A stretch of 64,000 nucleotides of DNA from Berkelbacteria bacterium GW2011_GWE1_39_12 (GTDB lineage: Bacteria > Patescibacteriota > UBA1384 > UBA12157). The stretch spans positions 332,288 through 396,287 of the forward strand of contig CP011213.1 of assembly GCA_001029735.1 (NCBI GenBank). The letters are read 5' to 3'. Below the pieces are notes generated by a model. The model did no database searches. It was not told the DNA's origin and saw only the letters and a list, made by a program, of their open reading frames with translations. Each line of letters opens with the position of its first letter. Within the stretch, counting starts at the first letter, position 1. A program made the translations under genes and the position numbers. Positions 7,402 through 61,483 of this stretch are shown here, in pieces.

Positions 7402-7471
7402 TTCTCTCCTCCATACGCCCAGTGTATTTATCTAGTAAATTTTATCTGAAAATAGTCATTTTGTCAATCAA

Positions 7472-11329: not shown

Positions 11330-11472
11330 CCCATCATCCGATGGGTTTTTTATTTGGGCAAAAGCATTGAACTCATGTAATTTTTATGGTACAGTTTACG
11401 CATAAAAAAAGAGACCACTATAAGACCTCTTTTCATCGCATTTTTTACAATTCAGGCAGAAAGGAACCGGTT

Positions 11473-12732
11473 ATGAAAACACTACCATTCAGCGAGGCGG
11501 AGATTCGAAGAGCCGTAAGTCAATTCCCGACACCGTTTCACCTGTACAACGCAGAGGCAATCCGACAAAACGCTCGACGCCTTATGAAGGCATTTGAGTG
11601 GGCCGGAGGATTTACGAACTTCTTCGCCGTCAAGGCCTGCCCTAATCCTTATGTCTTAGAGATACTAATGGAAGAGGGCTTCGGCGCCGACTGTAGTTCC
11701 GCATCAGAACTTGTTTTGGCTGAAATGGTCGGAATCACCGGCGAGATGATTATGTACACGAGCAACGATACATCAGCCAGAGAACTTGTAACGGCAGTCC
11801 GCGAAGGTGTAATCGTCAACCTTGACGACATCACTTTCATACCTTTTCTCGAAAAACATGCGGGTATTCCAGAATTACTTTGTCTTCGTTATAATCCGGG
11901 ACCACTCCGCGAAGGCAACGCTCTCATCGGCAAGCCTGAAGAGGCCAAATACGGCTTCACAGGGAAACAACTCCTCGAAGGCTATAAGATTTTACGTGAT
12001 AAAGGCGTAAAGAGATTTGGCCTTCACACCATGGTTGCAAGTAATGGGTTAGATCCACAATACTTTATTGCAACCGCCGAGATGCTTTTCAGTCTCGTGG
12101 CCGAAATCAGCGAAGAACTAGGCATTTGTTTCGAATTCGTCAACCTCGGCGGCGGCATTGGCATTCCTTATATGCCCGACCAAAACCCAGTTGATTTGGA
12201 AATCGTTTCAGCCGGCATCAAAGACCTTTACAAAGATATCATCATAGGTAATGGTCTTGATCCACTTAAGATCTATATGGAGAACGGACGTATGATTGTC
12301 GGCCCGTTTGGCTGTCTGGTCACAACTGCGATTCACCCGATGACGAAATACAGGGATTACGTTGGGGTGGATGCTTGTATAAACGCACTGATGAGGTATG
12401 CACTTTACGGTTCTTATCACCATATCACGGTCGTCGGCAAAGAGAACGACCCGCTCACCAAGACATACTGTGTAACCGGCTCGCTATGCGAGAACAATGA
12501 TTATTTCGCAACCGACCGGCTACTTCCAGAAATCGTCGAGGGAGACATCTTGGTGATTCACGATACTGGTGCACATGGTCATGCCATGGGTTCAAACTAC
12601 AATGGTAAACCTCGCCCGGCCGAAATCCTAATGGATCCAGACGGATCATTTAGACAAATCAGACGAGAGGAAACGACCGCAGATCTGTTCAAAACGCTTG
12701 ATTTTTCAAAACTCAGAACGAAGAGCAGATAA
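11473..12732 (+). CDS. lysA: PLP-dependent Orn/DAP/Arg decarboxylase family, probable diaminopimelate decarboxylase
   Basis: FAVKACPNPYVLEIL (PLP-Lys motif), GGGIGIPY, C-terminal beta-barrel region; ATG at 11473 chosen (track ORF begins 11386). Confidence 0.7.
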   Translation: MKTLPFSEAEIRRAVSQFPTPFHLYNAEAIRQNARRLMKAFEWAGGFTNFFAVKACPNPYVLEILMEEGFGADCSSASELVLAEMVGITGEMIMYTSNDTSARELVTAVREGVIVNLDDITFIPFLEKHAGIPELLCLRYNPGPLREGNALIGKPEEAKYGFTGKQLLEGYKILRDKGVKRFGLHTMVASNGLDPQYFIATAEMLFSLVAEISEELGICFEFVNLGGGIGIPYMPDQNPVDLEIVSAGIKDLYKDIIIGNGLDPLKIYMENGRMIVGPFGCLVTTAIHPMTKYRDYVGVDACINALMRYALYGSYHHITVVGKENDPLTKTYCVTGSLCENNDYFATDRLLPEIVEGDILVIHDTGAHGHAMGSNYNGKPRPAEILMDPDGSFRQIRREETTADLFKTLDFSKLRTKSR

Positions 12733-12746
12733 GGGAGGATACGTAA

Positions 12747-13979
12747 GTGGCACTGAAAAACAGCTATTACGAAAGGCTAGCAGGTGGATATCTTTTTCCA
12801 GAAATTGCCCGGCGGACCAAAGAGTTTCAGGTCTTCCATCCTGAAGTGAAGATTATGCGTCTGGGGATCGGCAATACGACAGAACCGCTGCCTCAGATTG
12901 TCGCAAGCGCCATGGCTCTTGAAGCAGTCAGGTTAATGAATGTCGAGACCTACTCTGGCTATGGCGACGAACAGGGTAACAGTAAGTTGCGTCAGGCTCT
13001 TTCTGAGCGCTATAAAAAGTGTTTCGGCGTGAGACTTGACGCTGACGAGTTCTTCATTAGCGACGGTTCCAAATGCGATTGCGCCAACATCAGCTCGATC
13101 TTTTCACACGAAAGCATCATCGCTGTTGAAAGCCCGGCCTATCCGGTCTACGTCGATAGTAATGTCACCTCGGGCAAAACCGGTCAATTCAACAAAGGGA
13201 AAATGCAGTACGAGGGTGTGTATTATATGCCCTGCACCGAGATGAATGACTTCTTCCCAGAAGTCCCAAGTGGCCATGTCGATCTGATTTACCTCTGTCG
13301 GCCTAACAACCCGACAGGGGCAGTAGCAATGGCCTCTGACCTTCAGCCATTCGTCGATTATGCTCTCGAGCACAAAGCTGTCATCATCTATGATGTCGCC
13401 TACGTCGACTACCAGAAGGAAAGAGGCCTAGTCGAAAGTATTTACCAAATCCCGGGCGCCGAAAAATGCGCCATCGAGATTGGATCTTTCAGCAAATGGG
13501 CTGGCTTCACCGGCGTGCGATTGGGCTGGAGCATTGTGCCGAAGGAACTGGTCGTCGAAGATACGGTGCCAGGCGAACTCCACAGGATGTGGAGCAGACG
13601 CTACACTACCGTGTTCAACGGCGCGAGCAACATCGCCCAAGCTGGCGGACTGGCTGTTCTTTCGGAACTTGGCCAGCAATCCTGCCAGGAAGTAATCAAT
13701 TACTACATGTCAAACGCACGTCTAATCAAGAATGGGCTCTATGACATGGGATTGACTGTGTACGGTGGCACAAATGCACCATACATCTGGCTCAAAGTGC
13801 CGGACGGTATGTCCTCATGGAATTTCTTTGACAAGCTACTGAACGAAACCAACGTGGTTTGCACACCGGGCGTCGGCTTTGGCCCTGATGGCGAAGGTTT
13901 CTGTCGACTCTCGGCCTTCGGCCACCAAGAAAACATCACTGAGGCAATCGAGAGCATCAGGATGAACCTACGAATCTAG
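12747..13979 (+). CDS. dapL: LL-diaminopimelate aminotransferase
   Basis: N-terminal ...LAGGYLFPEIARR... hallmark of DapL, aminotransferase class I length/fold; terminator hairpin at 13986-14010. Confidence 0.75.
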   Translation: MALKNSYYERLAGGYLFPEIARRTKEFQVFHPEVKIMRLGIGNTTEPLPQIVASAMALEAVRLMNVETYSGYGDEQGNSKLRQALSERYKKCFGVRLDADEFFISDGSKCDCANISSIFSHESIIAVESPAYPVYVDSNVTSGKTGQFNKGKMQYEGVYYMPCTEMNDFFPEVPSGHVDLIYLCRPNNPTGAVAMASDLQPFVDYALEHKAVIIYDVAYVDYQKERGLVESIYQIPGAEKCAIEIGSFSKWAGFTGVRLGWSIVPKELVVEDTVPGELHRMWSRRYTTVFNGASNIAQAGGLAVLSELGQQSCQEVINYYMSNARLIKNGLYDMGLTVYGGTNAPYIWLKVPDGMSSWNFFDKLLNETNVVCTPGVGFGPDGEGFCRLSAFGHQENITEAIESIRMNLRI

Positions 13980-38309: not shown

Positions 38310-39497
38310 ATGAATATTTTGGTTATTCACGAGACCGAATATGTTAAAAAAGTAGTCTATGAATTTCAAATAATTCCTGAACTCCTGGCTTCAAATGGCC
38401 ATCGGGTTTTTGTAATCGATTATCCGATGGCTTGGAAAAAAAGTAATTTATTTGATTTAGGCAGCTTCAAAACAGAATATTACTTGAATGTTAAAAAAGC
38501 CAATAAGAAAAAGGGGGTAACTCTAATTCGCCCTGGCATTATTAAAATTCCGGGAATCAGCCGCTTATTTGCCTTTTTTTCTTATTTTTCGTTAATTAAA
38601 AAAACAATAAAAAAATATAAAATAAATCAAATAATTCTTTATTCTGTTCCAACCAACGGCTTACAAACACTTTATTATGCCAAAAAATATAAAATCCCAG
38701 TGCATTTTCGTATGCTCGACGTCTTGCATCAACTGGTGCCATCTAAATTACTTTCTTGGCCAACTTATTTGATGGAGAAATATATCTATAAGCGGGTAAC
38801 TGAAATTACTGCCATTACGCCTCGACTGGTAAAATATGCCATTAAGATGGGGGGCGACCCTAAAACCACCTCTTATCTACCGACTGGATCAGATGCTGAT
38901 CTTTTCTTTCCCCAGAAAAAAAATATAGATCTTATTGAGAAATTTTGGATCAAAAAACAGGATAATGTTGTCCTGTTTGCGGGTACTCTATATAATTTTT
39001 CAGGTTTAGATATCTTAATAAAATACCTTGGAGAGAATCCGAAATTGAAGCGAAACCTTAAGATGATTATTGTTGGACACGGTGAACAAGAAGGTTTGCT
39101 AAAGAAAATGATTAAAGAATATAACCTCGATAAAAATGTTTTCTTGACAGGTTTTATCGATTATTTGGAACTCAATACATATATCAACTTAGCAGATATA
39201 TGTATTAACTCATTTCAAAAAAACAACATCACCAATATTATTTTTCCTAGCAAAATTTACCAATATTTAGCCTGCGGTAAACCTGTTGTCGCCACCAAAC
39301 TAAAAGGGCTTTTAGAGCTGTTTCCTGTTGGGAACAAGAATGTTTATTATTTCAACCTTAAAAAACCTGGAGAGTTTTTCTATTTAATCCATAAAATAAA
39401 GCACCAAAAAATAAATATTAAAAATCAATCACTTCAAAAAATTATGACAGTTATTGAAGAAAAACTAGAACAAGTTAACCGGCGAGTCGGCAATTAA
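38310..39497 (+). CDS. glycosyltransferase family 4
   Basis: C-terminal ...IFPSKIYQYLACGKPVVAT... Confidence 0.7.
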   Translation: MNILVIHETEYVKKVVYEFQIIPELLASNGHRVFVIDYPMAWKKSNLFDLGSFKTEYYLNVKKANKKKGVTLIRPGIIKIPGISRLFAFFSYFSLIKKTIKKYKINQIILYSVPTNGLQTLYYAKKYKIPVHFRMLDVLHQLVPSKLLSWPTYLMEKYIYKRVTEITAITPRLVKYAIKMGGDPKTTSYLPTGSDADLFFPQKKNIDLIEKFWIKKQDNVVLFAGTLYNFSGLDILIKYLGENPKLKRNLKMIIVGHGEQEGLLKKMIKEYNLDKNVFLTGFIDYLELNTYINLADICINSFQKNNITNIIFPSKIYQYLACGKPVVATKLKGLLELFPVGNKNVYYFNLKKPGEFFYLIHKIKHQKINIKNQSLQKIMTVIEEKLEQVNRRVGN

Positions 39498-40088
39498 CAT
39501 AAAAACGTAGATCAAAATTGCCAACATCATACCATATATCAGCACTCTGAGGGACGAATATAGAAATCTCTTTCTTGGGATGTTTGAGTAACAGGTTATA
39601 TTATAGACTTCGGTAATGTAGGCATCATAAATCTGCCGTTCGTCGTCTAGCGCTTTGTGAATTTCTTTACGATACTCATCTAAATCCATTGCGTTGATAT
39701 GATGATGGTAAAATAAACTTTCCTTCTGGCCTTTTTTTGTAGTGGTGTGAGGCGGTTTTAAGGCAACAATAGCCAGAAAAAGTGAGAGGATTAATGCACT
39801 AAGCAAGACCCAAAAAACCGGATTGCCGTCGATATTATCGCGGAAATAAGTAACCAACAAAACAATCAAGGCTGAATTAAACCCGATGACAATATTCGAC
39901 CGGACATCAAGCATGTTGCGGATTTCCGTTTGTTTATCTAAAAGTGAGTCCATAAATGTGACTTTACTTAAAGTATCGATTTCGTTTTCAACCCGCTCAA
40001 CTTCACTTTCAATTTTTTTGTCGATGGCTAGATCTTTTTGATCTAATTCAATAGTATCTTCATTCATTCCACTCCTTTTATTTGTCAT
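39465..40088 (-). CDS. hypothetical membrane protein (N-terminal coiled/soluble region, 2 central TM + C-terminal TM)
   Basis: 207 aa; architecture only. Confidence 0.4.
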   Translation of the reverse strand: MTNKRSGMNEDTIELDQKDLAIDKKIESEVERVENEIDTLSKVTFMDSLLDKQTEIRNMLDVRSNIVIGFNSALIVLLVTYFRDNIDGNPVFWVLLSALILSLFLAIVALKPPHTTTKKGQKESLFYHHHINAMDLDEYRKEIHKALDDERQIYDAYITEVYNITCYSNIPRKRFLYSSLRVLIYGMMLAILIYVFMLIADSPVNLF

Positions 40089-41042: not shown

Positions 41043-41071
41043 TTGACAAATTAATCTGCTTATGCTACAAT
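41043..41071 (+). promoter_or_regulatory. sigma70-like promoter TTGACA-17-TACAAT
   Basis: perfect -35, 17-nt spacer, -10 TACAAT ~58 nt upstream of the ATG at 41130. Confidence 0.55.
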
Positions 41072-41129
41072 GGCTTGTTACCTAATAGGGGTAACAGATT
41101 AGACCTTTAACAATAAGGAGAGAAAAAAA

Positions 41130-41459
41130 ATGAGTAAAGTGCAAGATTATCTACCTACAGTTTCAATATTACTGTTAGCCCTGATTATGGGTCTTTGCTT
41201 ATACAACGGCAGCGAAAGTGGTAAAAAATGGATACTGCCGGCTATCGCTCAAGTCCAACTTGATAAAGATGAGGAAGCTACCTATAAGGAGGCTCTTGTT
41301 AAATTTGCTCAAGGAGATAGCAAACTGCTTGACCAGTGGATTGATCACCTTCGAGCCAAAAAGAAAAAAGGCGTTTTGCCCAAACTTCCAAATGGCTATG
41401 ACAAAGACGGTTTGATTATCGTCGACGGTAAGGCAGTTTTAATTCCTAAAGATCAGTAA
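41130..41459 (+). CDS. small membrane-anchored/secreted hypothetical protein
   Basis: N-terminal hydrophobic segment; SD AAGGAGAG. Confidence 0.45.
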   Translation: MSKVQDYLPTVSILLLALIMGLCLYNGSESGKKWILPAIAQVQLDKDEEATYKEALVKFAQGDSKLLDQWIDHLRAKKKKGVLPKLPNGYDKDGLIIVDGKAVLIPKDQ

Positions 41460-41501
41460 CAAATTATGTGGCGGCACCGGCCCTGACAGGTGAGGAGAAA
41501 T

Positions 41502-41999
41502 ATGTTTTGGCAAATAATGGCTTATGGTTTAGGTCCAATACTTGGGATAGTTTTATTCCATAAAACTTGTCCCAGCGTTTCATATGCCCTTTCGGATGTT
41601 GTTATTGTAGCTGTTTGCTCTACACTAAACTGCTATCTGATTGCAAGATCGTATATCAAGCCCTTTGAACGAAAGAATCTTCTCCTGGAAAAGGGCTGGA
41701 TTTCCTTATCAAGGAAGCCGAGATGGGCTGCATGGGCACAGCCGGCAGATATGATCGAACATGAAAAGGTTATAATTGGTTTGCCCAATGAGCCTTCCAT
41801 AAAGGATGGTATATGGTCAATTCCAGCCATCGAAGGCTCTTTTGATCAAGTAAACTTCTTTGAGATTAAGTTCGAAAACAGTACCTTGATTGTAGATAAG
41901 AAGATTTACGAACGGTTTACCTCGGAAGGACAATGGGAACTGCGCACCCAGCTAGAAAAGTGGGCAAACGGAACCTCAAGGCTTCTCGTCGAAAAGTAA
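41502..41999 (+). CDS. hypothetical membrane protein
   Basis: 2 N-terminal TM; terminator hairpin at 42011-42045. Confidence 0.45.
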   Translation: MFWQIMAYGLGPILGIVLFHKTCPSVSYALSDVVIVAVCSTLNCYLIARSYIKPFERKNLLLEKGWISLSRKPRWAAWAQPADMIEHEKVIIGLPNEPSIKDGIWSIPAIEGSFDQVNFFEIKFENSTLIVDKKIYERFTSEGQWELRTQLEKWANGTSRLLVEK

Positions 42000-42039
42000 T
42001 ATATGACACTTCCCCGTCGGATTTTATCCGGCGGGGATT

Positions 42040-42146
42040 TTTTATTAGAGATCGTAAGGGAACAAAAGGGAAGAGAATATAAGGGAGAAAACGAAAGGGG
42101 AAAAACAGATGGGATACATAAGAGGAAACAAAAGAGAATCAAAAGC
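42040..42146. repeat. purine-rich (GA) flank; with the CT-rich flank at 42690-42800 forms an imperfect inverted repeat around the four-helix-bundle gene
   Basis: shared 14-nt perfect IR aagagaatcaaaag (42124-42140 vs revcomp of 42709-42723) plus repeated aaaggg/gaagag words. Confidence 0.6.
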
Positions 42147-42668
42147 TTATTTATTCTTATTATCACTTTTATCTAAAATATCTTTTAGATACTCATCAAA
42201 ATCTTTCTCAATTTTAGCTCTATTTTTGAGTTCTTTTCGAGCCATATCATTGCCACTAACCGTCTTTTCTCTATAACCCTTTTCTTCCAAACTTTTAATC
42301 TGTTTTTGCAGCATTTTAGCTTCGCCAACTCCCATTTGTATCCCTTTTGCACACCCTTTTGGATCCCCAATCTCTCCCTTTTGGCAATACTTGAAATCCC
42401 CTATGAGTTCTTCCAGAGATCCGGCCGAAAATCCTAGGAACGATATATATTCTTTGGTCGAAGTCCTCAAATACCCTTCTTCGATATTCCTGACTACACT
42501 TCTGGCCGAACGAATCATCTGGTCTTTTAAATCGGTTAAATATTGACCGGTTTTTGGATGCTTTGACGGAAAAGATACAACGAATTTTTCAGTTAATTCA
42601 AATATATCGTTGGCTTGCTGCCAGGTTAACAAATTGCGATATCCCAAGGGGTTCGAATGGGATAACAT
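42147..42668 (-). CDS. four-helix-bundle protein ('23S rRNA intervening sequence protein' family)
   Basis: LGYRNLLTWQQANDIFELTEKF...RSARSVVRNIEEGY...GSLEELIGDFKYC matches the conserved IVS-protein pattern (L.VWQKA..L...IY...P..E...L..Q.RRAA.SI..NIAEG...EEL). Confidence 0.7.
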   Translation of the reverse strand: MLSHSNPLGYRNLLTWQQANDIFELTEKFVVSFPSKHPKTGQYLTDLKDQMIRSARSVVRNIEEGYLRTSTKEYISFLGFSAGSLEELIGDFKYCQKGEIGDPKGCAKGIQMGVGEAKMLQKQIKSLEEKGYREKTVSGNDMARKELKNRAKIEKDFDEYLKDILDKSDNKNK

Positions 42669-42770
42669 AAGGGTCTCCTATGCGAATTAAAAATTAAATA
42701 TTCCCCTTTTGATTCTCTTCTGATTTTCCTTTTGATCTTCTTCCCCTTTGTCACCCTTTTGATTTCCCTT

Positions 42771-43547
42771 TTATTCCACCTTCTTAGTTCTCCCGTGTAA
42801 AACGGTATCCCATAAGATCCGCAAACCACGTGGAATAAAAAAGAAGGCATATTTAATAATCGCTAAAATCGTCCATTTATCAGACATCGCCCGGGTTTGA
42901 TGTGTTTCGATGGCTTTACGAAACTCGGCGGCTGTTTCCCCTTCAAATAAGGTATAACCCTTCCCAATTGCTTCAAGAATATGAGCGTCGGAATTACCTA
43001 ATTCCGCCTGCAAAATAGTTTCGTTAATCAAGGCGGCCCTGATATTTTCGTCGCCAAGAGTCGGAGTGGCGTTAATTACTTCAATGCCATCTAAATCTTT
43101 CCCAACCCTCATCAATGTTTTTAAACCAATGCCGTTCATCATTGGGCGGTCTCTGTTATTCCATCTGGACTGTTCGAACGGATGACAAGAAACAACCAAG
43201 CCACCTTGGGCATGCACTCTTTTAATTACCTCGGCGGCATCCAAGTTGGCCTCAATCGGCTCTTTTAAGAATAAACCCAAGAGATGGCCTTGAATCGAAG
43301 TTATTTCTTCACCTAAAACGAGATCAAAGCTGTATTTTTTCTCTTTCACCAATTTTTCAGCTTCAAAAGCCCCGGCCATGGTATCGTGATCGCAAATAGC
43401 AATAACATCAAGATTGGTCTGATTTTCAACGTAATCTAAAACTTCCGGCACTGTTGGACGACCGTCAGAATTCACGGTGTGGATGTGAACATCCGCCGTC
43501 CCCAACTGAGTAAATTTTTCAATCGCCCTAATACCTTTTTTATTCAC
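42771..43547 (-). CDS. PHP-domain metal-dependent phosphoesterase
   Basis: ADVHIHTVNSDG...AICDHD... PHP motifs. Confidence 0.7.
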   Translation of the reverse strand: MNKKGIRAIEKFTQLGTADVHIHTVNSDGRPTVPEVLDYVENQTNLDVIAICDHDTMAGAFEAEKLVKEKKYSFDLVLGEEITSIQGHLLGLFLKEPIEANLDAAEVIKRVHAQGGLVVSCHPFEQSRWNNRDRPMMNGIGLKTLMRVGKDLDGIEVINATPTLGDENIRAALINETILQAELGNSDAHILEAIGKGYTLFEGETAAEFRKAIETHQTRAMSDKWTILAIIKYAFFFIPRGLRILWDTVLHGRTKKVE

Positions 43548-43581
43548 AATTAAATTATAGCAAATAATTACTGCTAAGAGA

Positions 43582-43610
43582 TTGACATTACCTCAATTTT
43601 CTGGTATTAT
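43582..43610 (+). promoter_or_regulatory. sigma70-like promoter TTGACA-17-TATTAT
   Basis: consensus -35/-10 upstream of 43668. Confidence 0.5.
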
Positions 43611-43667
43611 TTCTCTCGTCCGCTATAAGTGAATTTATTTACTTTTGTGGGACGAAATCAGTGAAAG

Positions 43668-44441
43668 ATGAGGGACCAGAAATTGGCTAAGTCAGAAATT
43701 GAAGGAATGGGACAACCGGAAAACAAAGACAGAACAGAAAACCAGGTAGCAGAAGAAGATACACCGGTAGTGGTCACGGTAGAGACTCGTGCAGACGATC
43801 AACAGGGCGCGGCTGAAACAGAGGCAGTTACTGAACCGGAAGCTGTTGAACCAGAAACAGCACCTCATGTTCCACCATCGACACCGGCACATGAGACCCT
43901 AGCCAGGGCGATTGAAGATGTGAAAACAGCTTCGTGCCCTAGGGACGCAGACGAGGCATTGACGGCGCTCGCTTTGCAGTGCGGAGCGCGTAAAGACGAC
44001 TTCTTCCCGGACGACGTCCGCGGCAAGCTAGCCGCAGAAGCCCTATTTGTGGGGATCATGAACAACAAGCATGGAATCGTCTACGACCCGATCACGGAGT
44101 TTGCCGTGAACCAGATCGGGCTCGAAGAGACAAAGAAGTTCGCCGATAAAATGGGTATGGCTTTTGTCGATTGCTTCCCCGGGTGCCCTACCTGTAAAGG
44201 GCACATTGCGACCAAAGAACTGGCGGATCAAATACGGACATCAATTGAATCATCGAACATCCGTATTCCCGAAGAACTGGCCGCAATGTTTGGACCAGAG
44301 CTTACAGCACAGATCGAAGATCTGATAAGGCAAACGCCAGCTACCAGCGGCACTATCGAGATCTTCAGCGTCGAAGATCTCGACCGCATTCCTGGAAGAA
44401 CTTCCTTCGAACGGATATTCGGTCGTCGACGGCGCTTCTAG
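43668..44441 (+). CDS. acidic hypothetical protein with Cys cluster (CFPGCPTCKGH)
   Basis: 257 aa, high-GC codon usage, strong terminator at 44471-44508. Confidence 0.5.
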   Translation: MRDQKLAKSEIEGMGQPENKDRTENQVAEEDTPVVVTVETRADDQQGAAETEAVTEPEAVEPETAPHVPPSTPAHETLARAIEDVKTASCPRDADEALTALALQCGARKDDFFPDDVRGKLAAEALFVGIMNNKHGIVYDPITEFAVNQIGLEETKKFADKMGMAFVDCFPGCPTCKGHIATKELADQIRTSIESSNIRIPEELAAMFGPELTAQIEDLIRQTPATSGTIEIFSVEDLDRIPGRTSFERIFGRRRRF

Positions 44442-44579
44442 TAGATCCATTATCGAACTAACATACAAGAAACAGCCTTGGGTTTTCACCCAAGGCTGTT
44501 TTTCTTTTTGGGTAGACAAAAAACAACTCATGAGCTAGTCTAAGATGGAAGAACGTACATCACAATTGAAGGAGGTCAT

Positions 44580-44957
44580 ATGGCTGCCACTGCTACTATG
44601 ATACCAACTAATCTTCGTCGACGACGAGCTGCAAAACAAGTAAGAAAGTTGAATGCTAAAGATGATGCCGTATCTAAACATGTCGGCAAAACCATAACTG
44701 ACCTCTACGAACTGAGTCAATCCGGCACTGTTCCGGTAAACATAACCTTCGCCTTAAGATTAAAGCCAGACACCAGAAGTCCAGAAGAGATTAAAGAGAG
44801 CTTTGAAACCTTTACCCAGGCCATCCTGAAACTCTTACAAGATCTCTTTTGCACTTGTGGCGGAACATGCACAGTTGATTCATACGTCGTTAATCTAGCG
44901 GATCACATTGAATCTTGCGTTTTTCGCTATGATCCCACTTTACCTAGCCCGAATTAA
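44580..44957 (+). CDS. hypothetical protein
   Basis: SD GAAGGAGG 7 nt before ATG; terminator hairpin gcccgaa..ttcgggc at 44948-44975. Confidence 0.5.
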   Translation: MAATATMIPTNLRRRRAAKQVRKLNAKDDAVSKHVGKTITDLYELSQSGTVPVNITFALRLKPDTRSPEEIKESFETFTQAILKLLQDLFCTCGGTCTVDSYVVNLADHIESCVFRYDPTLPSPN

Positions 44958-45120
44958 ACTTTCGGGCTTTTTAACTAGTTATATTTAGAGGACGGGATCC
45001 CCGCGGAGTAGTTTATCCACATTTTGTAATTTTATAATCTTTGTTTTACTATTAAGTAGATCTAAGTTGTTTTTACCGCGAAGTCCCCTTGCCCAGAAGG
45101 AGGCGCGGCTACTCGAATCC

Positions 45121-45267
45121 CCATTCTCACAAAATGGTTATTATTTCAAAACAATTTGAGGAAGGATTGTTTTGATTAAAACTATTTGAGAATTGTCGTG
45201 TTTATGGCAATTCTGCATGTGGAAGGATAGTTTTAAAGAATTGTACTGTGAGAGATGGTCGTTTTTT
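45121..45267 (+). ncRNA. candidate structured RNA, copy 1 (unknown family)
   Basis: closing helix ccattctcaca/tgtgagagatgg, hairpin caaaacaat-ttgaggaagg-attgttttg, hairpin gagaattgtcg/tggcaattct, terminal T-run. Confidence 0.45.
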
Positions 45268-45381
45268 AGTATTTTTTATTTTTTAAGGTAAAAATAGACG
45301 ATCTTTCGATTATTGTTTATTGTTTTTTAATTTTGTTACAATATAAATGTTCTAGCGAAATAGAAACAAACACTCGTATTT

Positions 45382-45528
45382 CCATTCTCACAAATGGTTG
45401 TTAGTTCAAAACAATTTGAGGAAGGATTGTTTTGAAAAAGACTATTCGAGAATTGCCTTGTTTAAGGTAATTCTGCAAGGGAAAGGATAGTTTTAGAGAG
45501 AATTAATGTGAGAAGTGGAGGGTTTTTT
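45382..45528 (+). ncRNA. candidate structured RNA, copy 2 (diverged paralog of copy 1)
   Basis: same architecture; helix 2 arms changed to gaattgcc/ggtaattc, keeping pairing via a different wobble. Confidence 0.45.
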
Positions 45529-45735
45529 ATTTTTAAATATATGATAATTTGCAGTAAATTTAGAGTGTTTTATAATTAAATGGTTCTATCTAATATATAA
45601 GCTCAATAATTCGTGGACTGGTGGCGCCTTCAGAGCTTAGTCAAATACTCTCGGTTTCAACGCTCAAATACCTTGGCTGTTGTATTGTTGAGGTAAAAGG
45701 AGGGGTGTCGAATACGATTTTTTAGTACTCTTATC

Positions 45736-45764
45736 TTGACAAAATACTATTTATGAGATACAAT
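45736..45764 (+). promoter_or_regulatory. sigma70-like promoter TTGACA-17-TACAAT
   Basis: perfect consensus upstream of 45806. Confidence 0.55.
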
Positions 45765-45805
45765 GCTCGATGTACCTTAACATGGGTGAGCAGGAGGAGA
45801 AAACC

Positions 45806-46606
45806 ATGGCGAATTTGGAACGAGTTTTTTATGTATTGGATGGTGTCAGGAAAACACTTTTTCAGGTTCCTGACGATAGATTGGCAATGTGGCAGGGTTT
45901 CAACGACCCGGACAACTTTGACGACATGGGGTATCCGGGCGATATTATTGCTAAAATACTCAGCCGTGATCCGGAAGTTATCAGAAAAATCATGGCAGAA
46001 AACCCGCCGACGACACTCGAGATGCTTCAATATAAGCTCTCGGTGTTAAACAAAGCAACTGATTGGTCAAAGGTGGACATCTGTGCCGATATCATTACCG
46101 GCTGGATGTTCAAAAAAATCACAATCAAGGACTACGTTCAGGCTTTGAAAAGCCTGGGTATTACAATACAGTCTAGCTTACTACTCGTTGCGTTTGAAAG
46201 TAATGAGTCGGGCCCAACCTTCTTTACGGCCCAAAAGGTTCAGGAAGACCTTGCCATGACGTTTGGCATGAATTCAAGAAAACAACAGTCCTTCCTGATG
46301 AAAGAAGAAGCGAGAATGGGCTCGCTGGAGGATTTCTTAAACTACACACTTGAATTAGTGTGTATAGCGATCCTTAAAAATCATGATGTTTGGGGAGTCC
46401 TCTCGAACGCATTTCAGTCGAATACCACCGTGAAGCTTTCGAATTGCATCTATAAAAGCGAAGAACAAGCGGAGCTTAGCGGAAGACGGCTGCTTCTCGA
46501 GATTGATCCCGCGGCGTTCTATGACCGAACCAAGCCGCTTATCATCTTGAAATCCGTGCCTGAACCAAAATGGCATGGAAGCATTTTCACAGTAAGAAGC
46601 ATTTAG
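45806..46606 (+). CDS. hypothetical protein
   Basis: ATG at 45806 with AGGAGG SD; terminator 46605-46630. Confidence 0.55.
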   Translation: MANLERVFYVLDGVRKTLFQVPDDRLAMWQGFNDPDNFDDMGYPGDIIAKILSRDPEVIRKIMAENPPTTLEMLQYKLSVLNKATDWSKVDICADIITGWMFKKITIKDYVQALKSLGITIQSSLLLVAFESNESGPTFFTAQKVQEDLAMTFGMNSRKQQSFLMKEEARMGSLEDFLNYTLELVCIAILKNHDVWGVLSNAFQSNTTVKLSNCIYKSEEQAELSGRRLLLEIDPAAFYDRTKPLIILKSVPEPKWHGSIFTVRSI

Positions 46607-46641
46607 CCCTTCGTAAGAGGGGCTTTTTTAATCCCTTACTC

Positions 46642-46670
46642 TTGACAACAGCTCAACTATATGCTATAGT
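46642..46670 (+). promoter_or_regulatory. sigma70-like promoter TTGACA-17-TATAGT
   Basis: consensus hexamers upstream of 46782. Confidence 0.5.
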
Positions 46671-46781
46671 GGCAAGTTGTGTTCTTTTACAACTAGTCTT
46701 AAATCCAAGCAATCACCCGGTTTCCGGGTTTTATATAGTCACTGCAATTTCTCTAAAAAATCAACTATGGAGGCAGTTCTT

Positions 46782-47807
46782 ATGAAGCGAAATACAATAG
46801 CAGTACTTGGAATGGCACTTCTTCTGGCGTTTTGTACCGTACCAGCACAGGCAGGCGGACCTGGCGACAGCGGCACCTATGTGACCGCTGACGTCTTCAA
46901 CCCCTCGAGTATGAACTTGGACGGCGTAGATAACACATCGACTTTCTTCCCAACCGACATCCTCGGCAACGAGAATTTCAGAGAGAAGACATGTGCCGTC
47001 ATCGGCGTGAATCACGCCAACATCGGTGATGCTGAGTTCGACGGCAACAAAGAAATCGTCGTTTATCAGCCAAATCGCAAGTTTGCCGTTGGCATAGCCC
47101 GTTCATCTGTCGACTCAAGTCGCTGGTCAGTTAACCCTGACAGCACTGGTACGATGGAAACATCGGGCCATTGGATGACTTTTACTAGCGCATATCAAGC
47201 CAGTAAGAAAGTGGCAATCGGTCTGAGCATAACCAGCGGCAAGGCTTATACAGCCACCACTTGGCCAGGCTTTAGCTACATAGATAACGAAACAGATAAC
47301 GTGCATAGTTTCCCTGGCGGAACAGACCGAATGACCATCAAAGATGGCACGAACTTCGTCCTTGGTGCTGACCTAGCCGTCAACTCTGAATTCAACGTCT
47401 TAGCCGCGTGGAACAGCCGTTCCGGCGAACTAAGCATGTCAACCGTCATGGACGACGGTAGTGATCCGGGTTATCCAGGAATGGGCCCGCTATCCTTTAG
47501 CAAAGATTCTATGACGATTGCTGGCAGATACCATAAGGGTAAACTGCAAGCGACCGTCGGTTTCCAAGGGATTCAGAATGACGGGGCCTACATGGAAACC
47601 GACAAGACGATGCGCAGCTTCGCAGGAGTGCATTACCAGTTCAGCAAGAACCTTTCGGTTCGAGCTGGAAGCTGCTCTGGAAGCCGCGACATTGGTGCCC
47701 TCTACAGCGACAATTGCTGGGTCGTCAATGCTGGGTACCTCAATAAGGGCCTCAATACGAGTAACAACAACTCGATGTGGCTCCTGAGCGGAGGTAAGCT
47801 GTTCTAG
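46782..47807 (+). CDS. putative outer-membrane beta-barrel protein (signal peptide, C-terminal Phe)
   Basis: MKRNTIAVLGMALLLAFCTVPAQA signal peptide; alternating amphipathic strands; ends ...LLSGGKLF; terminator 47834-47867. Confidence 0.5.
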   Translation: MKRNTIAVLGMALLLAFCTVPAQAGGPGDSGTYVTADVFNPSSMNLDGVDNTSTFFPTDILGNENFREKTCAVIGVNHANIGDAEFDGNKEIVVYQPNRKFAVGIARSSVDSSRWSVNPDSTGTMETSGHWMTFTSAYQASKKVAIGLSITSGKAYTATTWPGFSYIDNETDNVHSFPGGTDRMTIKDGTNFVLGADLAVNSEFNVLAAWNSRSGELSMSTVMDDGSDPGYPGMGPLSFSKDSMTIAGRYHKGKLQATVGFQGIQNDGAYMETDKTMRSFAGVHYQFSKNLSVRAGSCSGSRDIGALYSDNCWVVNAGYLNKGLNTSNNNSMWLLSGGKLF

Positions 47808-47870
47808 GAACAGCAAACTAACGAACTTATCGAAAAGGCGGTGGAGATTTCTCCCCCGCCTTTTTTAATA

Positions 47871-47900
47871 CTAAATTTATTTGACTTGTCCAAAAAACCA
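47871..47900 (+). promoter_or_regulatory. sigma70-like promoter TTGACT-18-TATACT
   Basis: upstream of 47937. Confidence 0.45.
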
Positions 47901-47936
47901 GTTCTATACTTTATCTAAGAGCAGACGGAGGTGAAT

Positions 47937-48317
47937 ATGGAAGCTGTCATAGTTCTAACCCCTCTTTCTTTCGATCAGAGATATGGCATTTTCTACTATA
48001 AGGACAATAATTCCCTGACAATTGTCTTCTCTGGCGATGTAGTACTGAATAGACTCTTTACTCTAGAGCTAAGACCAACAACTATCTTCGTGGACATGCT
48101 TGGAATTAATTTGAGCGATCTAAGAAGAATTACTATTAACACCCAAGCTCTTCCGACGCAAGGCTATGACAAGGTTCTGCCTTTCCTTGGCCTTTTTGCA
48201 GCCTATACCAACAACGCCCTTAACATCGATCTCTTGATCTTGGCTCAGAAATCCCTTTACAATACCGACCGGGGTTTCTCCAAGTTCGATCTTCAGGTTT
48301 TTCCTGAAGGCAGCTAG
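47937..48317 (+). CDS. hypothetical protein
   Basis: GGAGG SD 7 nt before ATG 47937; terminator cccgcc..ggcggg at 48320-48342. Confidence 0.5.
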   Translation: MEAVIVLTPLSFDQRYGIFYYKDNNSLTIVFSGDVVLNRLFTLELRPTTIFVDMLGINLSDLRRITINTQALPTQGYDKVLPFLGLFAAYTNNALNIDLLILAQKSLYNTDRGFSKFDLQVFPEGS

Positions 48318-48352
48318 CTACCCGCCCCCTGGCGGGTTTTATAAATTTAGTA

Positions 48353-48381
48353 TTGACCATTCGGTTATTTTCTGATATAGT
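48353..48381 (+). promoter_or_regulatory. sigma70-like promoter TTGACC-17-TATAGT
   Basis: upstream of 48414. Confidence 0.45.
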
Positions 48382-48413
48382 TTCGATGCATCAAAAGCAT
48401 AAGGAGGATCAAT

Positions 48414-48743
48414 ATGTATGTGCCCGCAGATGTTATTGGAGTAAGAAGAGAAACCGAAAATGCTCTGAGTAGAGCAAACATTAACCATAAAATCACGATC
48501 GCAAGAAGAGTAACCGTGTATTTTAAGGGCAGCGGCTCAGGATATCTATATGCAAAAAGTGGTTTGGTTGAAAATGTAATGACAGTTGTTCCCAAGCCAG
48601 GATTTGGGGCAGCCTATGTCGTCATCGGCTTTAAGGTAGACGACAAGAAGGCCGAGATGGTTGCCTACTCAACAGGCGAGACCAAATGGTCCTATGCAGA
48701 CAAATCCCTAACCCCCTTCTGGGCCGAACCTGAGAATGAATAA
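48414..48743 (+). CDS. hypothetical protein
   Basis: AAGGAGG SD; terminator 48758-48782. Confidence 0.5.
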   Translation: MYVPADVIGVRRETENALSRANINHKITIARRVTVYFKGSGSGYLYAKSGLVENVMTVVPKPGFGAAYVVIGFKVDDKKAEMVAYSTGETKWSYADKSLTPFWAEPENE

Positions 48744-48819
48744 CGATCGATCTCACAACCCACTGATTTTGGTGGGTTTTTTAGTACTAAAAAACCCAGG
48801 ATTTCTCCTGGGTTAACTG

Positions 48820-49446
48820 TTACTTGATAGAATATCCAATCCCGAAACCGACAAAGCCGTTATCACCGAACTTTGTACGAAGTTCCGGAGTAAAGTCCCT
48901 GTAGGACTTAGATGCTCTCAGGTAGGCAGCTTTGTTGTTCGCTGCCAGATCGATGTTTGTGCCCTTCTTGGTTTTGAAACCAATACCTACAAAAGGTTTT
49001 GACCTCTCTTCAAGAGTTAGGAACAAATTGACCTTTCCTTTATACCTGAATCCGAATTGGATTGGTTCTCCTTCAAGAGACGCGATCATACCAATCCCGA
49101 AGTGATTAGCTTCGTAATCGAACATCAAGCTTTCGCCCAATGTCGTATCTGAGCATTCTCGCTTGTAGTTGGCGATGTAACCAGTTTGGAACCGAGAACC
49201 AATTCTTTGAGCAATCGAGAGCTCGTTGGTCACACTCGCCTCATCATCGCAGCCATACCATCCAATAGATGTATTTTTAGCGACTTGCCGGGAAGCGTAA
49301 AACCAAGGATCATTTTCAACTGCCACCTTCAGAAATGTTCCTGAACCAAAAAGGTAGCATGCCGTCAGATCCGCCGGGTTAGCAGCTTGAACTGGAACTG
49401 AGTAAAGCAGCACGATTGCTGCCAAGATCGCAATTATATACCTCAT
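48820..49446 (-). CDS. putative small outer-membrane beta-barrel/porin-family protein with signal peptide
   Basis: MRYIIAILAAIVLLYSVPVQA signal peptide; beta-rich; own terminator at 48789-48814 (minus). Confidence 0.45.
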   Translation of the reverse strand: MRYIIAILAAIVLLYSVPVQAANPADLTACYLFGSGTFLKVAVENDPWFYASRQVAKNTSIGWYGCDDEASVTNELSIAQRIGSRFQTGYIANYKRECSDTTLGESLMFDYEANHFGIGMIASLEGEPIQFGFRYKGKVNLFLTLEERSKPFVGIGFKTKKGTNIDLAANNKAAYLRASKSYRDFTPELRTKFGDNGFVGFGIGYSIK

Positions 49447-49500
49447 TTAGTTTCCTCCTTTTGAATGTGTCGGAGGAAATTCCCCCGACTACCTAAATTG

Positions 49501-50721
49501 CTATGCAACCAAGTAATCGGGAAGAGGCACATGAGCGATCTTATTCACTATATCTGGCAGTAAAGCCGACTGATCAGCGTTCGCAAGCCTTCCAACAAGA
49601 GAACAAGATTCAAGTTTAAGCGGTGGGGTTATCCAACCGTGTTGGCTTGTTTCAAATTGCTTTTGCTGACCGCTGCTTAACCAGATCGCTTCTATTGGAC
49701 CCGCCCGACTGGAAATCAAGACTTTCGTCTTTTCCTTCTCTGTCGATGCCTGCGCAGATGAACTAAACCAAGGCAGAATAAACAAACACAGAATTGTCGC
49801 GGCCAAGGCCAAGGCAAAACTATGTTTGAAATTCCCTGTATTTTGGTGACAATACTCTTTGCGCCAAACTTTGTAACCTGTAGAGCCAGCGATCTCATCG
49901 ATCACTTTTTTCTCATGTCTTGAAAGCGGCGCTAGAAGTTTATCTTTTATCCGTCGCAGCTCTGTCTGAACTACTATTTCTCGGATGATATTTCCCGGAT
50001 AGCAGAACAAGCCATAAGGCCAGAAAAGTATCGAGAAAACAAATTTCTTCTTGTCAGCCAGAACTGTCGCCAGAAGTCGTTTCTTCCGTTTCCAGATTCG
50101 AAGCGCATACATCAGCAAACAAACAGGCCAAGTCCGCAAGAAAAGGAACCAGGACCATGTCCACCAGTTGACGCTTTTAAGATGTGCGCCGAGTGTTTCT
50201 GCCCCGGTTTTTGGACCAATGTTGTATTTACTTTTCCATGAGTTGTAGCTCATTTCCTCGGGCCATCGTTGCATTTCCATTTCACGATTGTCTTGGGTGT
50301 TACGAAAACATTGTTCCATCAACGCACCTCTGGTACTAGATGAAACAATGCCACCACCATTCGGACAAATCGGAGTTGGAAACCCTAGTTTCTGATCCAG
50401 ACGGTCAATCTCGCGCAGATCGCTATAAAGCGTTTTGGGCGTGTAATTTCTGCCCAACTTATGCGCTCTTCCTCCGATCTTACTACAGAGCGCGGCCACC
50501 CGGATTCCGGCTTTCTTCTGATACTCATAGTCTTGGCTAGCCTGAGAAAATGTTTTAGGATGCTGCTGCATCTGACAAAACGCCCAAAGCAGCCAAACGA
50601 CAAAGAGCACAAAGCCGATACAATCAAAAACTGTAATGCGGTCGTCCTGTCCGTCATTGTAATAACGCTGATTCGGACGATTTCTCATTCTGCTTAGCGC
50701 CGTGTAATACTCGTGATCCAT
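49501..50721 (-). CDS. hypothetical polytopic membrane protein
   Basis: 406 aa, several TM, Trp-rich; no family recognised. Confidence 0.45.
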   Translation of the reverse strand: MDHEYYTALSRMRNRPNQRYYNDGQDDRITVFDCIGFVLFVVWLLWAFCQMQQHPKTFSQASQDYEYQKKAGIRVAALCSKIGGRAHKLGRNYTPKTLYSDLREIDRLDQKLGFPTPICPNGGGIVSSSTRGALMEQCFRNTQDNREMEMQRWPEEMSYNSWKSKYNIGPKTGAETLGAHLKSVNWWTWSWFLFLRTWPVCLLMYALRIWKRKKRLLATVLADKKKFVFSILFWPYGLFCYPGNIIREIVVQTELRRIKDKLLAPLSRHEKKVIDEIAGSTGYKVWRKEYCHQNTGNFKHSFALALAATILCLFILPWFSSSAQASTEKEKTKVLISSRAGPIEAIWLSSGQQKQFETSQHGWITPPLKLESCSLVGRLANADQSALLPDIVNKIAHVPLPDYLVA

Positions 50722-50861
50722 TCATTTCACCCCCTCTTTTGGCTAGTTGCCAGATTCAATTGTTAAATTTCATCGCATAGTACGAACAGGTGAGAATACT
50801 ACCAATAAAGCAAAAAGTCAAGATACTAAAAACCCCGAGATTTCTCTCGGGGCAAATAGAT

Positions 50862-51047
50862 CTACCAGTTGGCCCTCTCATCCCAGAACCCAACGTGTTT
50901 CGGCCATCGGTACGGATCACGAGGATCATCTTCCCAATTCGCCTCAGTAGCCCAATGCCCACGATGAGGTTGATGACCATCGGGGTAATCCTGTTCTTTA
51001 TACTCTATATAATCATCTTCTTTAATTACATCCTCGTTCTCAGCCAT
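50862..51047 (-). CDS. small acidic Trp-rich hypothetical protein
   Basis: ATG at 51045-51047 preceded by AGGAGG; the longer track ORF begins further upstream. Confidence 0.4.
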   Translation of the reverse strand: MAENEDVIKEDDYIEYKEQDYPDGHQPHRGHWATEANWEDDPRDPYRWPKHVGFWDERANW

Positions 51048-51066
51048 ATCAACTACCTTTTCCTCC

Positions 51067-51507
51067 TTATTTTTTTGAAACCTTAAACTTTTCTGTTTCC
51101 CAGTCTTTGAGAATTCCAGCATGCTCTATTCGCTTATAGGCAGGTCTAAACTTTATATTGTCCCCCTTGTCGATGACTTTGAAATATGCGGTACACTTTA
51201 AAACGCATTTTTCCTCTTCAGTGAAACCAGGAACAAGAATATCCCAGTGATATTCAGCGGCGGTTGGAATGCTTTCTTTTTCATTTTCAACACAATACAC
51301 CCGGACGGATTGTTTTGAACTAACTCCACAAACCGCTTGGTGATCGGGATCATAGTCTGCAACCACAAGGCAATACTGGTCCGCAGAATAACCAAACCGA
51401 GTCCCAATAAAACCGATTTCCATTTCTTGGCCCATGATTGCAAACAATTCAATTACCACCTTCAAAGCGAGTCTCTCGTTTTTATTGAAATAATGGTTGT
51501 CAAACAT
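51067..51507 (-). CDS. hypothetical protein
   Basis: ATG 51505-51507 with AGGAGGG SD. Confidence 0.5.
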   Translation of the reverse strand: MFDNHYFNKNERLALKVVIELFAIMGQEMEIGFIGTRFGYSADQYCLVVADYDPDHQAVCGVSSKQSVRVYCVENEKESIPTAAEYHWDILVPGFTEEEKCVLKCTAYFKVIDKGDNIKFRPAYKRIEHAGILKDWETEKFKVSKK

Positions 51508-51667
51508 AATCCCTCCTTTTGATTGTTAATATCCGCCCTCTCGCGAACAGATGATGGTATCATAAGACTGTTATTTAGTCCTATTTTTTGACATATTGAT
51601 ATATACAATAGAGTTTGTTATCTTATATTTAAATAATGTTGTCCATTTTTTGGACAAAAGGAGTTAG

Positions 51668-60496: not shown

Positions 60497-61267
60497 TCAA
60501 CGGATCTGGAGTGTGTCGCCCGACTGGGGCCGACATTTTTCCATGTCCGCAGTAACTATTATATGGTCGCCGTCAATATCTCTCACTCGATAGCGAGCGA
60601 TCACTTCGCAACCTTTCTTCTTGAAGACAAGCACGGTCGAACCGTTATTGTCTTTTACGAAGACATTCCTCTGTTCTCTCAGAACAAAGGAGGTTACCTC
60701 TTCGTAGGAGCCATCGGCGCACGATCGTGCGACTGTGTATTTACAGTTGGCTTCCAATGAGAAACCCTTCGCGTTCTCCGTGTTCCAAGGGTTATTACAG
60801 TAAACCGGGGCCGCTTGATGAACAACTACATTCTGCTGCGGTGCTACTACTATTTCTTGCTGAGGAGCAACGACTACGGGCTGAGAAGTATAGACGGGCT
60901 GTTCCTGAGGATAGTCATTACATCCAACAGGAACTCGCTCGTCCCAAGGCTGGGCTTTGTGACCAATATTCACATTGATAGTGTCGATATTGATCTTCAA
61001 CTTTGGACGATTGCTTCTGCTCTGTTGCCGATAACTATACCGGGGCTGAGGCTGATACCTGTTGTCATGGCCATAACCTCTGTCCCCACGGTCATGTCTA
61101 TATTGAGGCGCATAGAACGTATTGCGAGCAATCGGAGCATGAAACGTGTTACGAGCGATAGGCGCATGAAACGTGTTTTGTGCAACTGGTGCACGGTATG
61201 CGCTAACAGGGGCGACCATCAAGGCCGCCAGAAGAACTACCATTGCTACCATAACTGAGATTCTCAT
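60497..61267 (-). CDS. secreted hypothetical protein with 3x 9-aa tandem repeat (HAPIARNTF)
   Basis: ATG 61265-61267 with GAGGAG SD; signal peptide MRISVMVAMVVLLAALMVAPVSA; higher GC. Confidence 0.5.
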   Translation of the reverse strand: MRISVMVAMVVLLAALMVAPVSAYRAPVAQNTFHAPIARNTFHAPIARNTFYAPQYRHDRGDRGYGHDNRYQPQPRYSYRQQSRSNRPKLKINIDTINVNIGHKAQPWDERVPVGCNDYPQEQPVYTSQPVVVAPQQEIVVAPQQNVVVHQAAPVYCNNPWNTENAKGFSLEANCKYTVARSCADGSYEEVTSFVLREQRNVFVKDNNGSTVLVFKKKGCEVIARYRVRDIDGDHIIVTADMEKCRPQSGDTLQIR

Positions 61268-61483
61268 CTGTTTTCTCCTCATATAAGCAAGATAGGTGCC
61301 GAACCTGTTACACAGGTTCAAACACCTTATCAAACACTGAACCATATTCAGTTTTTAATGAACATGTTATCATATCACAAAAAACAGGTTTTGTCAACCT
61401 GTCGTAAGTCATAAAGTCTTCAAGTCGAAAGTCAAAAAAGTGCTTTCTTTACGGACTTTTAACTTTAAGAACTTTTGACTATT

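Follow-up and report, generated by a model that had tools for sequence, protein, structure and literature searches.

The closest described counterparts of the proteins treated here are beta-barrels of the bacterial outer membrane. Members of the FadL/TodX/PorV group (Pfam Toluene_X, PF03349) are 14-stranded outer-membrane transporters of hydrophobic compounds; FadL itself has more than 400 residues, and a hatch domain of about 40 N-terminal residues plugs its barrel. The small monomeric porins OmpG, Omp33 and CymA also have 14 strands, KdgM and NanC have 12, and further barrels are found in the toga of Thermotoga and among the OmpM-type attachment porins of atypical two-membrane Terrabacteria. 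A large share of bacterial diversity belongs to the Candidate Phyla Radiation (CPR; Patescibacteria), whose members are unable to make their own lipids and many metabolites and are pictured as single-membrane cells attached to others. A barrel of 14 strands exported by the Sec pathway, together with a membrane partner, is unexpected in CPR because the outer membrane is considered lost there. Here, a candidate pair of this kind is described from a chromosome of Candidatus Berkelbacteria, a CPR lineage. The window, that is the whole stretch of DNA analyzed, comprises 64,000 nucleotides and contains, at 43.6–51.5 kb, a block of ten genes (A to J) with a shifted content of guanine and cytosine (GC). 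The explanation that we favor, and that we regard as reasonably probable when taken as a whole, is a GC-shifted block of stand-alone genes whose one recognizable functional unit is the H-G operon, with an envelope channel as its putative product.

A Predicted Barrel and Its Membrane Partner

Gene G encodes a short protein with a signal peptide, in which an A-x-A cleavage site (MRYIIAILAAIVLLYSVPVQA, followed by ANPADLT) is conserved over 34 family members. The AlphaFold2 model built from the alignment of these 34 sequences has a predicted local distance difference test (pLDDT) value of 91.9 and a predicted template-modeling score (pTM) of 0.81. In this model 14 consecutive antiparallel strands follow the signal peptide and form a compact, closed barrel with minimal loops and an even strand number, the best structural matches of which are solved outer-membrane barrels. 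The highest scores in the structural comparison were obtained with a Pseudomonas FadL homologue (3dwo, 19.3), E. coli FadL (1t16, 18.9) and Bacteroidota BamG (18.8), followed by PorV (17.8), Omp33 (17.1), TodX (16.5) and OmpG (16.5), in agreement with Foldseek, which gave PorV, OmpG and KdgM at the top. Moreover, the strands alternate in hydropathy (family-averaged Kyte-Doolittle values: +1.19 for the hydrophobic face, -0.89 for the polar face), a pattern that is weak in the first three of them. At the mature N-terminus the residues of the motif N-P-A-D-x-T are each invariant or nearly so. We take this motif to be comparable with the NPA motif of the FadL hatch, a likeness used as a lead only and not as a test. 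The C-termini of G-type proteins follow the pattern F.GFGLGF.P.

As modeled, G has a fold of the FadL/PorV/OmpG type. It is not filed as a member of the FadL family because it does not match PF03349, has about 15 residues before strand 1 and, with ~187 mature residues, is half the size of FadL. In fact, G has almost no external loops and no full hatch, and it belongs to a lineage thought to be without an outer membrane; furthermore, FadL has no three-pass partner, whereas G is nearly always paired with a novel three-pass membrane protein. The small porins (OmpG, Omp33, CymA, KdgM/NanC) are 5–12% identical to G, without sequence similarity, and differ from it in N-terminal motif, genomic partner and taxonomic setting. 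As for the toga barrels and the OmpM-type proteins, their structural scores against G are much lower, G carries no S-layer-homology or coiled-coil tether domain, and no sequence link to them was found. The search of PDB sequences with the G profile gave nothing significant.

The partner, H, has three robust transmembrane segments at about residues 31–53, 188–210 and 298–318, as judged from family-averaged hydropathy and charge. The region between the second and the third segment (210–297) is positively charged and contains the most conserved motif of the family (ILxTILADKKKF...YPxNVVREIxVEAELRR). On these features it should face the cytoplasm, which would leave a domain of ~130 residues (55–185) and a C-terminal tail of ~90 residues (~320–406), ending in a conserved I.H[IV]P motif, outside the cytoplasm; both of these external regions could meet the barrel. 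No significant match of H was found in Pfam, NCBIfam or PADLOC, nor was there any for the H profile among PDB sequences.

Distribution and Linkage of the H-G Pair

When 1.84 billion representative proteins were searched exhaustively with HMMER, the concatenate of H, G, A, C and I being the query, more than 100 homologues of H (23–40% identity, 370–440 aa) and about 35 of G (26–37% identity, ~200–220 aa) were retrieved. A word-indexed search with the G alignment gave few matches, with one named source among the matches listed. When the H alignment was scanned against one genome per species, 13 loci were obtained: nine in metagenome-assembled genomes that carry the names of CPR lineages (Patescibacteria and Parcubacteria groups, Paceibacterota, Saccharibacteria, Moraniibacteriota and a further Berkelbacteria chromosome, 929 kb long), three in genomes named only "bacterium" and one in a genome binned as Bdellovibrionales. 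A scan of metagenomes added 28 further H loci, and look-ups of the two closest H relatives three more.

Downstream of H and on the same strand, a beta-rich protein of ~209–254 aa with a signal peptide is encoded in all loci with enough DNA except one, the two genes being separated by a few tens of nucleotides or slightly overlapping. Three types of partner can be distinguished: the G type, whose mature N-terminus carries NPADLT; a second type with WSF, WTF or FNF as its last residues; and a third that ends in YRF. The G type and the second type have no profile-profile similarity, and the second type has a weak match (E 0.08) to a porin fragment among PDB sequences. Tandem H-barrel pairs occur in two loci, L037 (5369–9274) and L061 (502–4510); those of L037 combine barrels of two types, with a separate near-consensus promoter for each cassette. 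The clade of H matches the type of barrel for 27 of 32 nearest neighbors, as expected for co-inherited, interacting partners.

The neighborhoods of the pair vary between genomes and consist of housekeeping genes. In the genome and metagenome loci examined, none of A–F, I and J was found near any H homologue, and the view that the block is one module, as the original prediction had it, was not borne out. The expression signals, on the other hand, travel with the pair. In 29 of 38 homologues, the 160 nt 5' of H include a promoter with no fewer than 10 of the 12 consensus positions, compared with 5.7% of random windows from the same loci; nine of these promoters are perfect (TTGACA-N16/17-TATAAT), and a GGAGG Shine-Dalgarno (SD) sequence is also present at most homologues. 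Since near-consensus promoters recur across the homologues, the "textbook" signals are a family trait of the cassette. Of 12 other genomes, 10 have a pair that is richer in GC than the surrounding DNA, the largest difference (10.5 points) being that of the other Berkelbacteria. No description of the cassette was found in the searched literature on FadL, porins or barrels in Patescibacteria. H-G is a cassette not described before, which occurs chiefly in genomes with CPR names and has no curated family behind either protein; it recurs as a self-contained unit and, to judge from its promoters and SD sequences, is highly expressed. Taken together, model and linkage make it very probable that G is a barrel of the outer-membrane type which functions as a pair with H.

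Composition and Expression Signals of the Block

Exact protein matches assign the window to a Candidatus Berkelbacteria bacterium known from metagenomes of Rifle groundwater (GCA_003509005.1, contig DODL01000009.1; several ENA and Logan assemblies, with one contig of 915 kb). The surroundings of the block (Table 1) suit such a genome and comprise glycosyltransferase operons as well as genes for TrmB regulators, ComF, a T2SSE ATPase and type IV secretion pilins. The higher-GC island that had been noted at 43.6–51.5 kb is confirmed by GC content, by GC at third codon positions (GC3) and by synonymous codon statistics, the host reference for composition being the 64-kb window only. GC per kb is 0.44–0.49 over 43–51 kb, compared with 0.29–0.40 in the glycan locus (14–43 kb) and 0.33–0.39 at 51–54 kb; the single dip within the block, to 0.35 at 45–46 kb, corresponds to a non-coding gap of 848 nt. 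GC3 is 0.37–0.58 in the ten block genes and ~0.28–0.44 in most background genes, and the fractions of C-ending NNY codons (0.50) and of G-ending NNR codons (0.45) exceed those of the background (0.32 and 0.29, respectively). The GC shift of the block at synonymous sites is a general compositional shift.

Table 1. Genes, transcription units and RNA-like elements of the block and of its left extension (window positions).
Feature	Coordinates	Strand	Description
Left extension	41043..42037	+	11/12 promoter 41043-41071, gene K, gene Lp, terminator hairpin 42011-42037
Gene K	41130-41459	+	109 aa; no Pfam match
Gene Lp	41502-41999	+	165 aa; no Pfam match
Gene A unit	43582..44503	+	promoter TTGACA-17-TATTAT (43582-43610), gene A, terminator 44468-44503
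Gene A	43668-44441	+	257 aa; acidic N-terminal region; CFPGCPTC cluster
Gene B	44580-44957 (unit 44580..44968)	+	125 aa; GAAGGAGG SD; terminator 44946-44968; without a strong promoter of its own
RNA-like element, copy 1	45118..45268	+	four helices; loops with GAGGAAGGA and GGAAGGAUAG; U-run after closing helix; 177 bits
RNA-like element, copy 2	45379..45528	+	fold z-score -4.45; covariance model 172 bits
Gene C unit	45736..46624	+	promoter TTGACA-17-TACAAT (45736-45764), gene C, terminator 46605-46624
Gene C	45806-46606	+	266 aa
Gene D unit	46642..47866	+	promoter TTGACA-17-TATAGT (46642-46670), gene D, terminator ~47834-47866
Gene D	46782-47807	+	341 aa; signal peptide (cleavage between CTVPAQA and GG); beta-rich; ends in GGKLF
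Gene E unit	47881..48345	+	promoter TTGACT-18-TATACT (47881-47910), gene E, terminator ~48320-48345
Gene E	47937-48317	+	126 aa
Gene F unit	48353..48778	+	promoter TTGACC-17-TATAGT (48353-48381), gene F, terminator 48757-48778
Gene F	48414-48743	+	109 aa
Gene G	48820-49446 (unit 48793..49446)	-	208 aa; terminator 48814-48793; Sec signal peptide; mature N-terminus ANPADLT
Stem-loop without U-run	49465-49490		between H and G
Gene H	49501-50721 (unit 49501..50821)	-	406 aa; 9/12 promoter 50821-50793; three-pass membrane protein
J-I bicistron	50832..51507	-	gene J, gene I, terminator 50853-50832
Gene I	50862-51047	-	61 aa; acidic, Trp-rich
Gene J	51067-51507	-	146 aa; no family or PDB match

A consensus scan gave promoters with 11 of 12 consensus positions at 41043, 43582, 45736 and 46642 and with 10 of 12 at 47881 and 48353; all had been noted at these positions, apart from that at 47881, which had been placed at 47871. 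On the plus strand the scan recovered terminators at 44468, 44946, 46605 and 48757, and on the minus strand at 48814 and 50853; two more hairpins with a T-run, at ~47834 and ~48320, are visible by eye in the sequence. The claim that nearly every gene has a promoter of its own holds for most genes but not for B, which has no strong one, nor for the minus-strand genes, which form two bicistrons: J-I, closed by the terminator at 50853, and then H-G, starting from a promoter at 50821. An SD of at least 5 nt of AGGAGG is present at 8 of the 10 block genes and at 12 of 52 genes elsewhere in the window, and the median intergenic gap is 129 nt in the block versus 22 nt elsewhere, which bears out both the strong SD sequences and the contrast with tightly packed operons.

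The uniform expression grammar described for the block is therefore real, but it is typical of the genome. Outside the block, promoters of the form TTGACA-17-TAnnnT lie at 7467, 31364, 35010, 40988, 56259 and 61397 and GGAGG SD sequences at 7036, 17039, 41130, 51668 and 56322, and there the same grammar sits at stand-alone or operon-first genes. As the same signals recur outside, the grammar belongs to the genome as a whole, and the block stands out only by the density of these signals, because its genes stand alone.

Independent public assemblies end, or carry N-gaps, at shared points inside the block (46377/46383, 48826–48839, 44248–44262, 45412 and 46155). Some of these points lie in gene A or in gene C, where several independent assemblies break at 46377/46383; others lie in the RNA repeat or next to the convergent terminators, where G has its 3' end. 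Their recurrence suggests local coverage or assembly-graph problems, or heterogeneity of the population.

Origin of the Block

High GC and strong signals could also result from high expression of native, fast-evolving surface genes, with no transfer at all. This explanation draws on the GC enrichment of the cassette in 10 of 12 other genomes and on its near-consensus promoters across homologues, as well as on a stand-alone gene at 60497–61345 on the minus strand, encoding a secreted protein of 282 aa with NTFHAPIAR repeats: with a GC content of 0.48, no Pfam match and an 11/12 promoter at 61397, this unit (60497–61397) repeats outside the block the pattern of GC-rich composition, strong signals and no known family. 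However, the shifts of NNY codons to C and of NNR codons to G occur together, which is more like a general compositional bias than translational selection, and the genes for the type IV secretion pilins, which may be well expressed, are not shifted. Native high expression is thus a serious but somewhat unlikely explanation.

A little less credence is given to the recent acquisition of the whole ~8-kb block, in a single event, from a more GC-rich donor. A GC content 6–12 points over the flanks, with C- and G-ending synonymous codons both enriched, a dense array of genes with no or almost no relatives and the fragmentation of assemblies within the block are all in its favor. The block is in fact like classical genomic islands in its atypical GC and codon use and in its many genes without clear relatives, but differs from them in having no integrase, tRNA, direct repeats or mobility genes and in a content that is partly common to a relative. 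No integrase domain, flanking tRNA or flanking direct repeat was found at the block, the only tRNA genes of the window being at 7.5 and 10 kb. The flanking TrmB genes were considered as a duplication made by insertion and rejected as such, since they are just 28% identical (distant paralogues). Furthermore, the promoter and SD grammar is that of the host, H-barrel pairs elsewhere share the GC enrichment, and the relatives of H and G occur mostly in CPR-named genomes, which do not make a plausible two-membrane donor. All assemblies found belong to the same population, are essentially identical and carry the block with both junctions.

Evidence on the age of the region comes from a relative in the sample SRR22388067, in which homologues of K, A and H-G are present on short contigs at 34–64% identity, arguing for a long residence in the lineage. 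This relative holds the closest H-G pair (locus L060; H 37–40% and G 35% identity). On another locus, L063, a K homologue (64%) is followed by a 37-nt terminator identical to window positions 42006–42042, a promoter and an A homologue (34%). K and A adjoin there, whereas in the window Lp, a gene of the 23S_rRNA_IVP four-helix-bundle type and a PHP gene lie between them. The identity of the terminator with its T-run (CACTTCCCCGTCGGATTTTATCCGGCGGGGATTTTTT; window 42006–42042, L063 ~905–941) is an observation in its own right, as the neighboring proteins are only 34–64% identical. The IVP-type gene (42147–42668, minus strand) is flanked by imperfect inverted repeats (42070–42145 and 42701–42777), purine-rich on one side and pyrimidine-rich on the other; neither it nor the PHP gene occurs between K and A in L063, and it has the look of an inserted cassette.

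With its left extension to K, the block has the appearance of a rapidly evolving region that has been in the lineage for some time, and transfer among CPR is possible. The horizontal acquisition originally suggested thus keeps its compositional basis, the GC shift at synonymous sites, but there is no mobility signature and a relative shares K, A and H-G; a horizontal origin is plausible from composition, and unproven.

Possible Role in the Cell Envelope

The original prediction had also proposed an envelope or surface system. For H and G this is upheld by the 14-stranded barrel model, the three-pass protein and the linkage of the two genes; no evidence was found that the other genes belong to it. 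In the mechanism that we propose, G would be exported via Sec and fold into a compact 14-stranded transmembrane beta-barrel, seated in a lipid, lipid-protein/proteinaceous or host-derived layer outside the cytoplasmic membrane, or else in the membrane of a partner cell, while the external regions of H would hold or assemble it. The barrel might then act as a passive channel for small or hydrophobic molecules, imported by biosynthetically poor cells. A channel for hydrophobic molecules is possible because of the closest structural relatives of G and because CPR depend on imported lipids. By analogy with these relatives a channel or uptake role is proposed, though only tentatively. A far-reaching extension, namely that CPR, pictured with a single membrane and without the beta-barrel assembly machinery (BAM), widely encode true single-chain barrels, each with a dedicated three-pass protein that takes over from BAM in assembling or anchoring it, and that these barrels are inserted in an unrecognized outer layer of the CPR cell or in the host outer membrane and open a conduit for lipids and metabolites, is speculative and in our opinion improbable.

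Several observations weigh against the favored explanation. The channel or uptake role is drawn from fold resemblance only. None of the 34 members of the G family matched PF03349 even at E values up to 10, and G of the window ends in GIGYSIK, with a last residue that is not aromatic, unlike the classical C-terminal signal. One H locus, L058, has no barrel partner, and the second and third partner types, known from sequence alone, share no profile similarity with G. Finally, the seat of a barrel is puzzling, as CPR are regarded as lacking an outer membrane in a passage of PMC10160955 that cites Witwinowski et al.

A different role for the G-type barrels would be that of units of a mostly proteinaceous outer sheath, comparable to the Thermotoga toga or to an S-layer, with H as their anchor. 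A conspicuous surface layer has reportedly been seen by cryo-electron microscopy of groundwater CPR cells. The very strong promoters and SD sequences would fit an abundant structural protein, and the barrels are compact with minimal loops; the sheath of Thermotogae is itself built of beta-barrel proteins (PMC10160955). We consider such a sheath rather unlikely nonetheless: the hydrophobic face of the strands implies lipid or detergent-like surroundings, and there is neither a sequence nor a profile link to Thermotoga Omp-beta or S-layer-homology proteins. As a concrete candidate envelope channel, which is the role that we favor, H-G bears on how CPR take host material, on the presence of a second lipid layer in CPR cells or in the host contact zone, and on the assembly of barrels without BAM. 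The remainder of the block, taken alone, is a typical fast-evolving patch of modest interest.

The Remaining Genes of the Block

In agreement with the earlier statement that no family could be recognized, none of the ten block proteins has a significant match in Pfam, PHROGs, NCBIfam or PADLOC; for B, E, F and J, relatives were sought in such family libraries alone. In the exhaustive HMMER search, gene A had a single, weak homologue (P0142; 34% identity, E 1.3e-7) and C and I had no match but themselves. Nothing significant was obtained for A, C and J among PDB sequences. By these searches, detectable relatives are absent or nearly so for the genes of the block outside H-G; A–C, E, F, I and J encode proteins that evolve fast or are specific to their lineage, with no evidence tying them to the work of H-G.

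Gene D deserves separate mention, since both G and D had been predicted to be outer-membrane barrels. The prediction was sustained for G by a confident 14-strand model; D, which ends in Phe, is probably a second, larger barrel. Its single-sequence AlphaFold2 model is all-beta and unreliable (pLDDT 36), a word-indexed search of 5.8 billion proteins returned no match but D itself, and a profile comparison with the G type and with the second partner type gave no significant similarity. The automatic UniRef names of the two proteins ("Porin domain..." for D and "Outer membra..." for G) indicate that automated pipelines have flagged the barrel fold of both.

A Pair of Structured RNA-like Elements in the 848-nt Gap

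The non-coding gap between B and C contains two tandem RNA-like elements of ~150 nt each, 81–90% identical depending on the stretch compared, with an extended -10 element (TGnTACAAT) at 45334–45342 upstream of copy 2. The element has four helices, made up of 44 pairs, and its loops carry sequences like GAGGAAGGA. Pairing survives each of the eight substitutions that fall in paired columns, one of them being two-sided, and several G-U pairs point to the plus strand as the RNA. The GGA-rich loops are reminiscent of protein-sponge RNAs such as CsrB/RsmZ, a tentative likeness. Against Rfam 15, neither copy reached the gathering threshold, and only chance-level matches appeared at E values up to 10. 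The covariance model found no further copy, either elsewhere in the window or in related loci totaling 438 kb, and a degenerate pattern of the element gave one chance match in viral contigs.

That the block is a remnant prophage, plasmid or defense island, with the AT-rich repeats at 45.0–45.7 kb as origin or packaging site, is very improbable: its stand-alone small genes without clear relatives, the AT-rich gap with tandem hairpin elements and a PycTM-like gene nearby would suit it, but no phage or plasmid signature was found (none of the ten proteins with a significant PHROGs or PADLOC match, H absent from 2.9 million viral contigs, G without a close analogue in a viral structure library, no integrase or replication protein), and the G-U pairs and compensatory changes favor a plus-strand RNA over a DNA site.

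The gene just mentioned encodes a membrane protein similar to PycTM, a Pycsar effector (39465–40088, minus strand); it has no adjacent cyclase gene and overlaps the end of a glycosyltransferase gene. Farther to the left, a second GC-rich patch at 10730–13979 (GC 0.47–0.51, GC3 0.49–0.60), which directly follows two tRNA-Ser genes (10083 and 10543), encodes an acyltransferase, a decarboxylase of the Orn/DAP type and an aminotransferase, and is a better-looking candidate for acquired metabolic genes than the main block.

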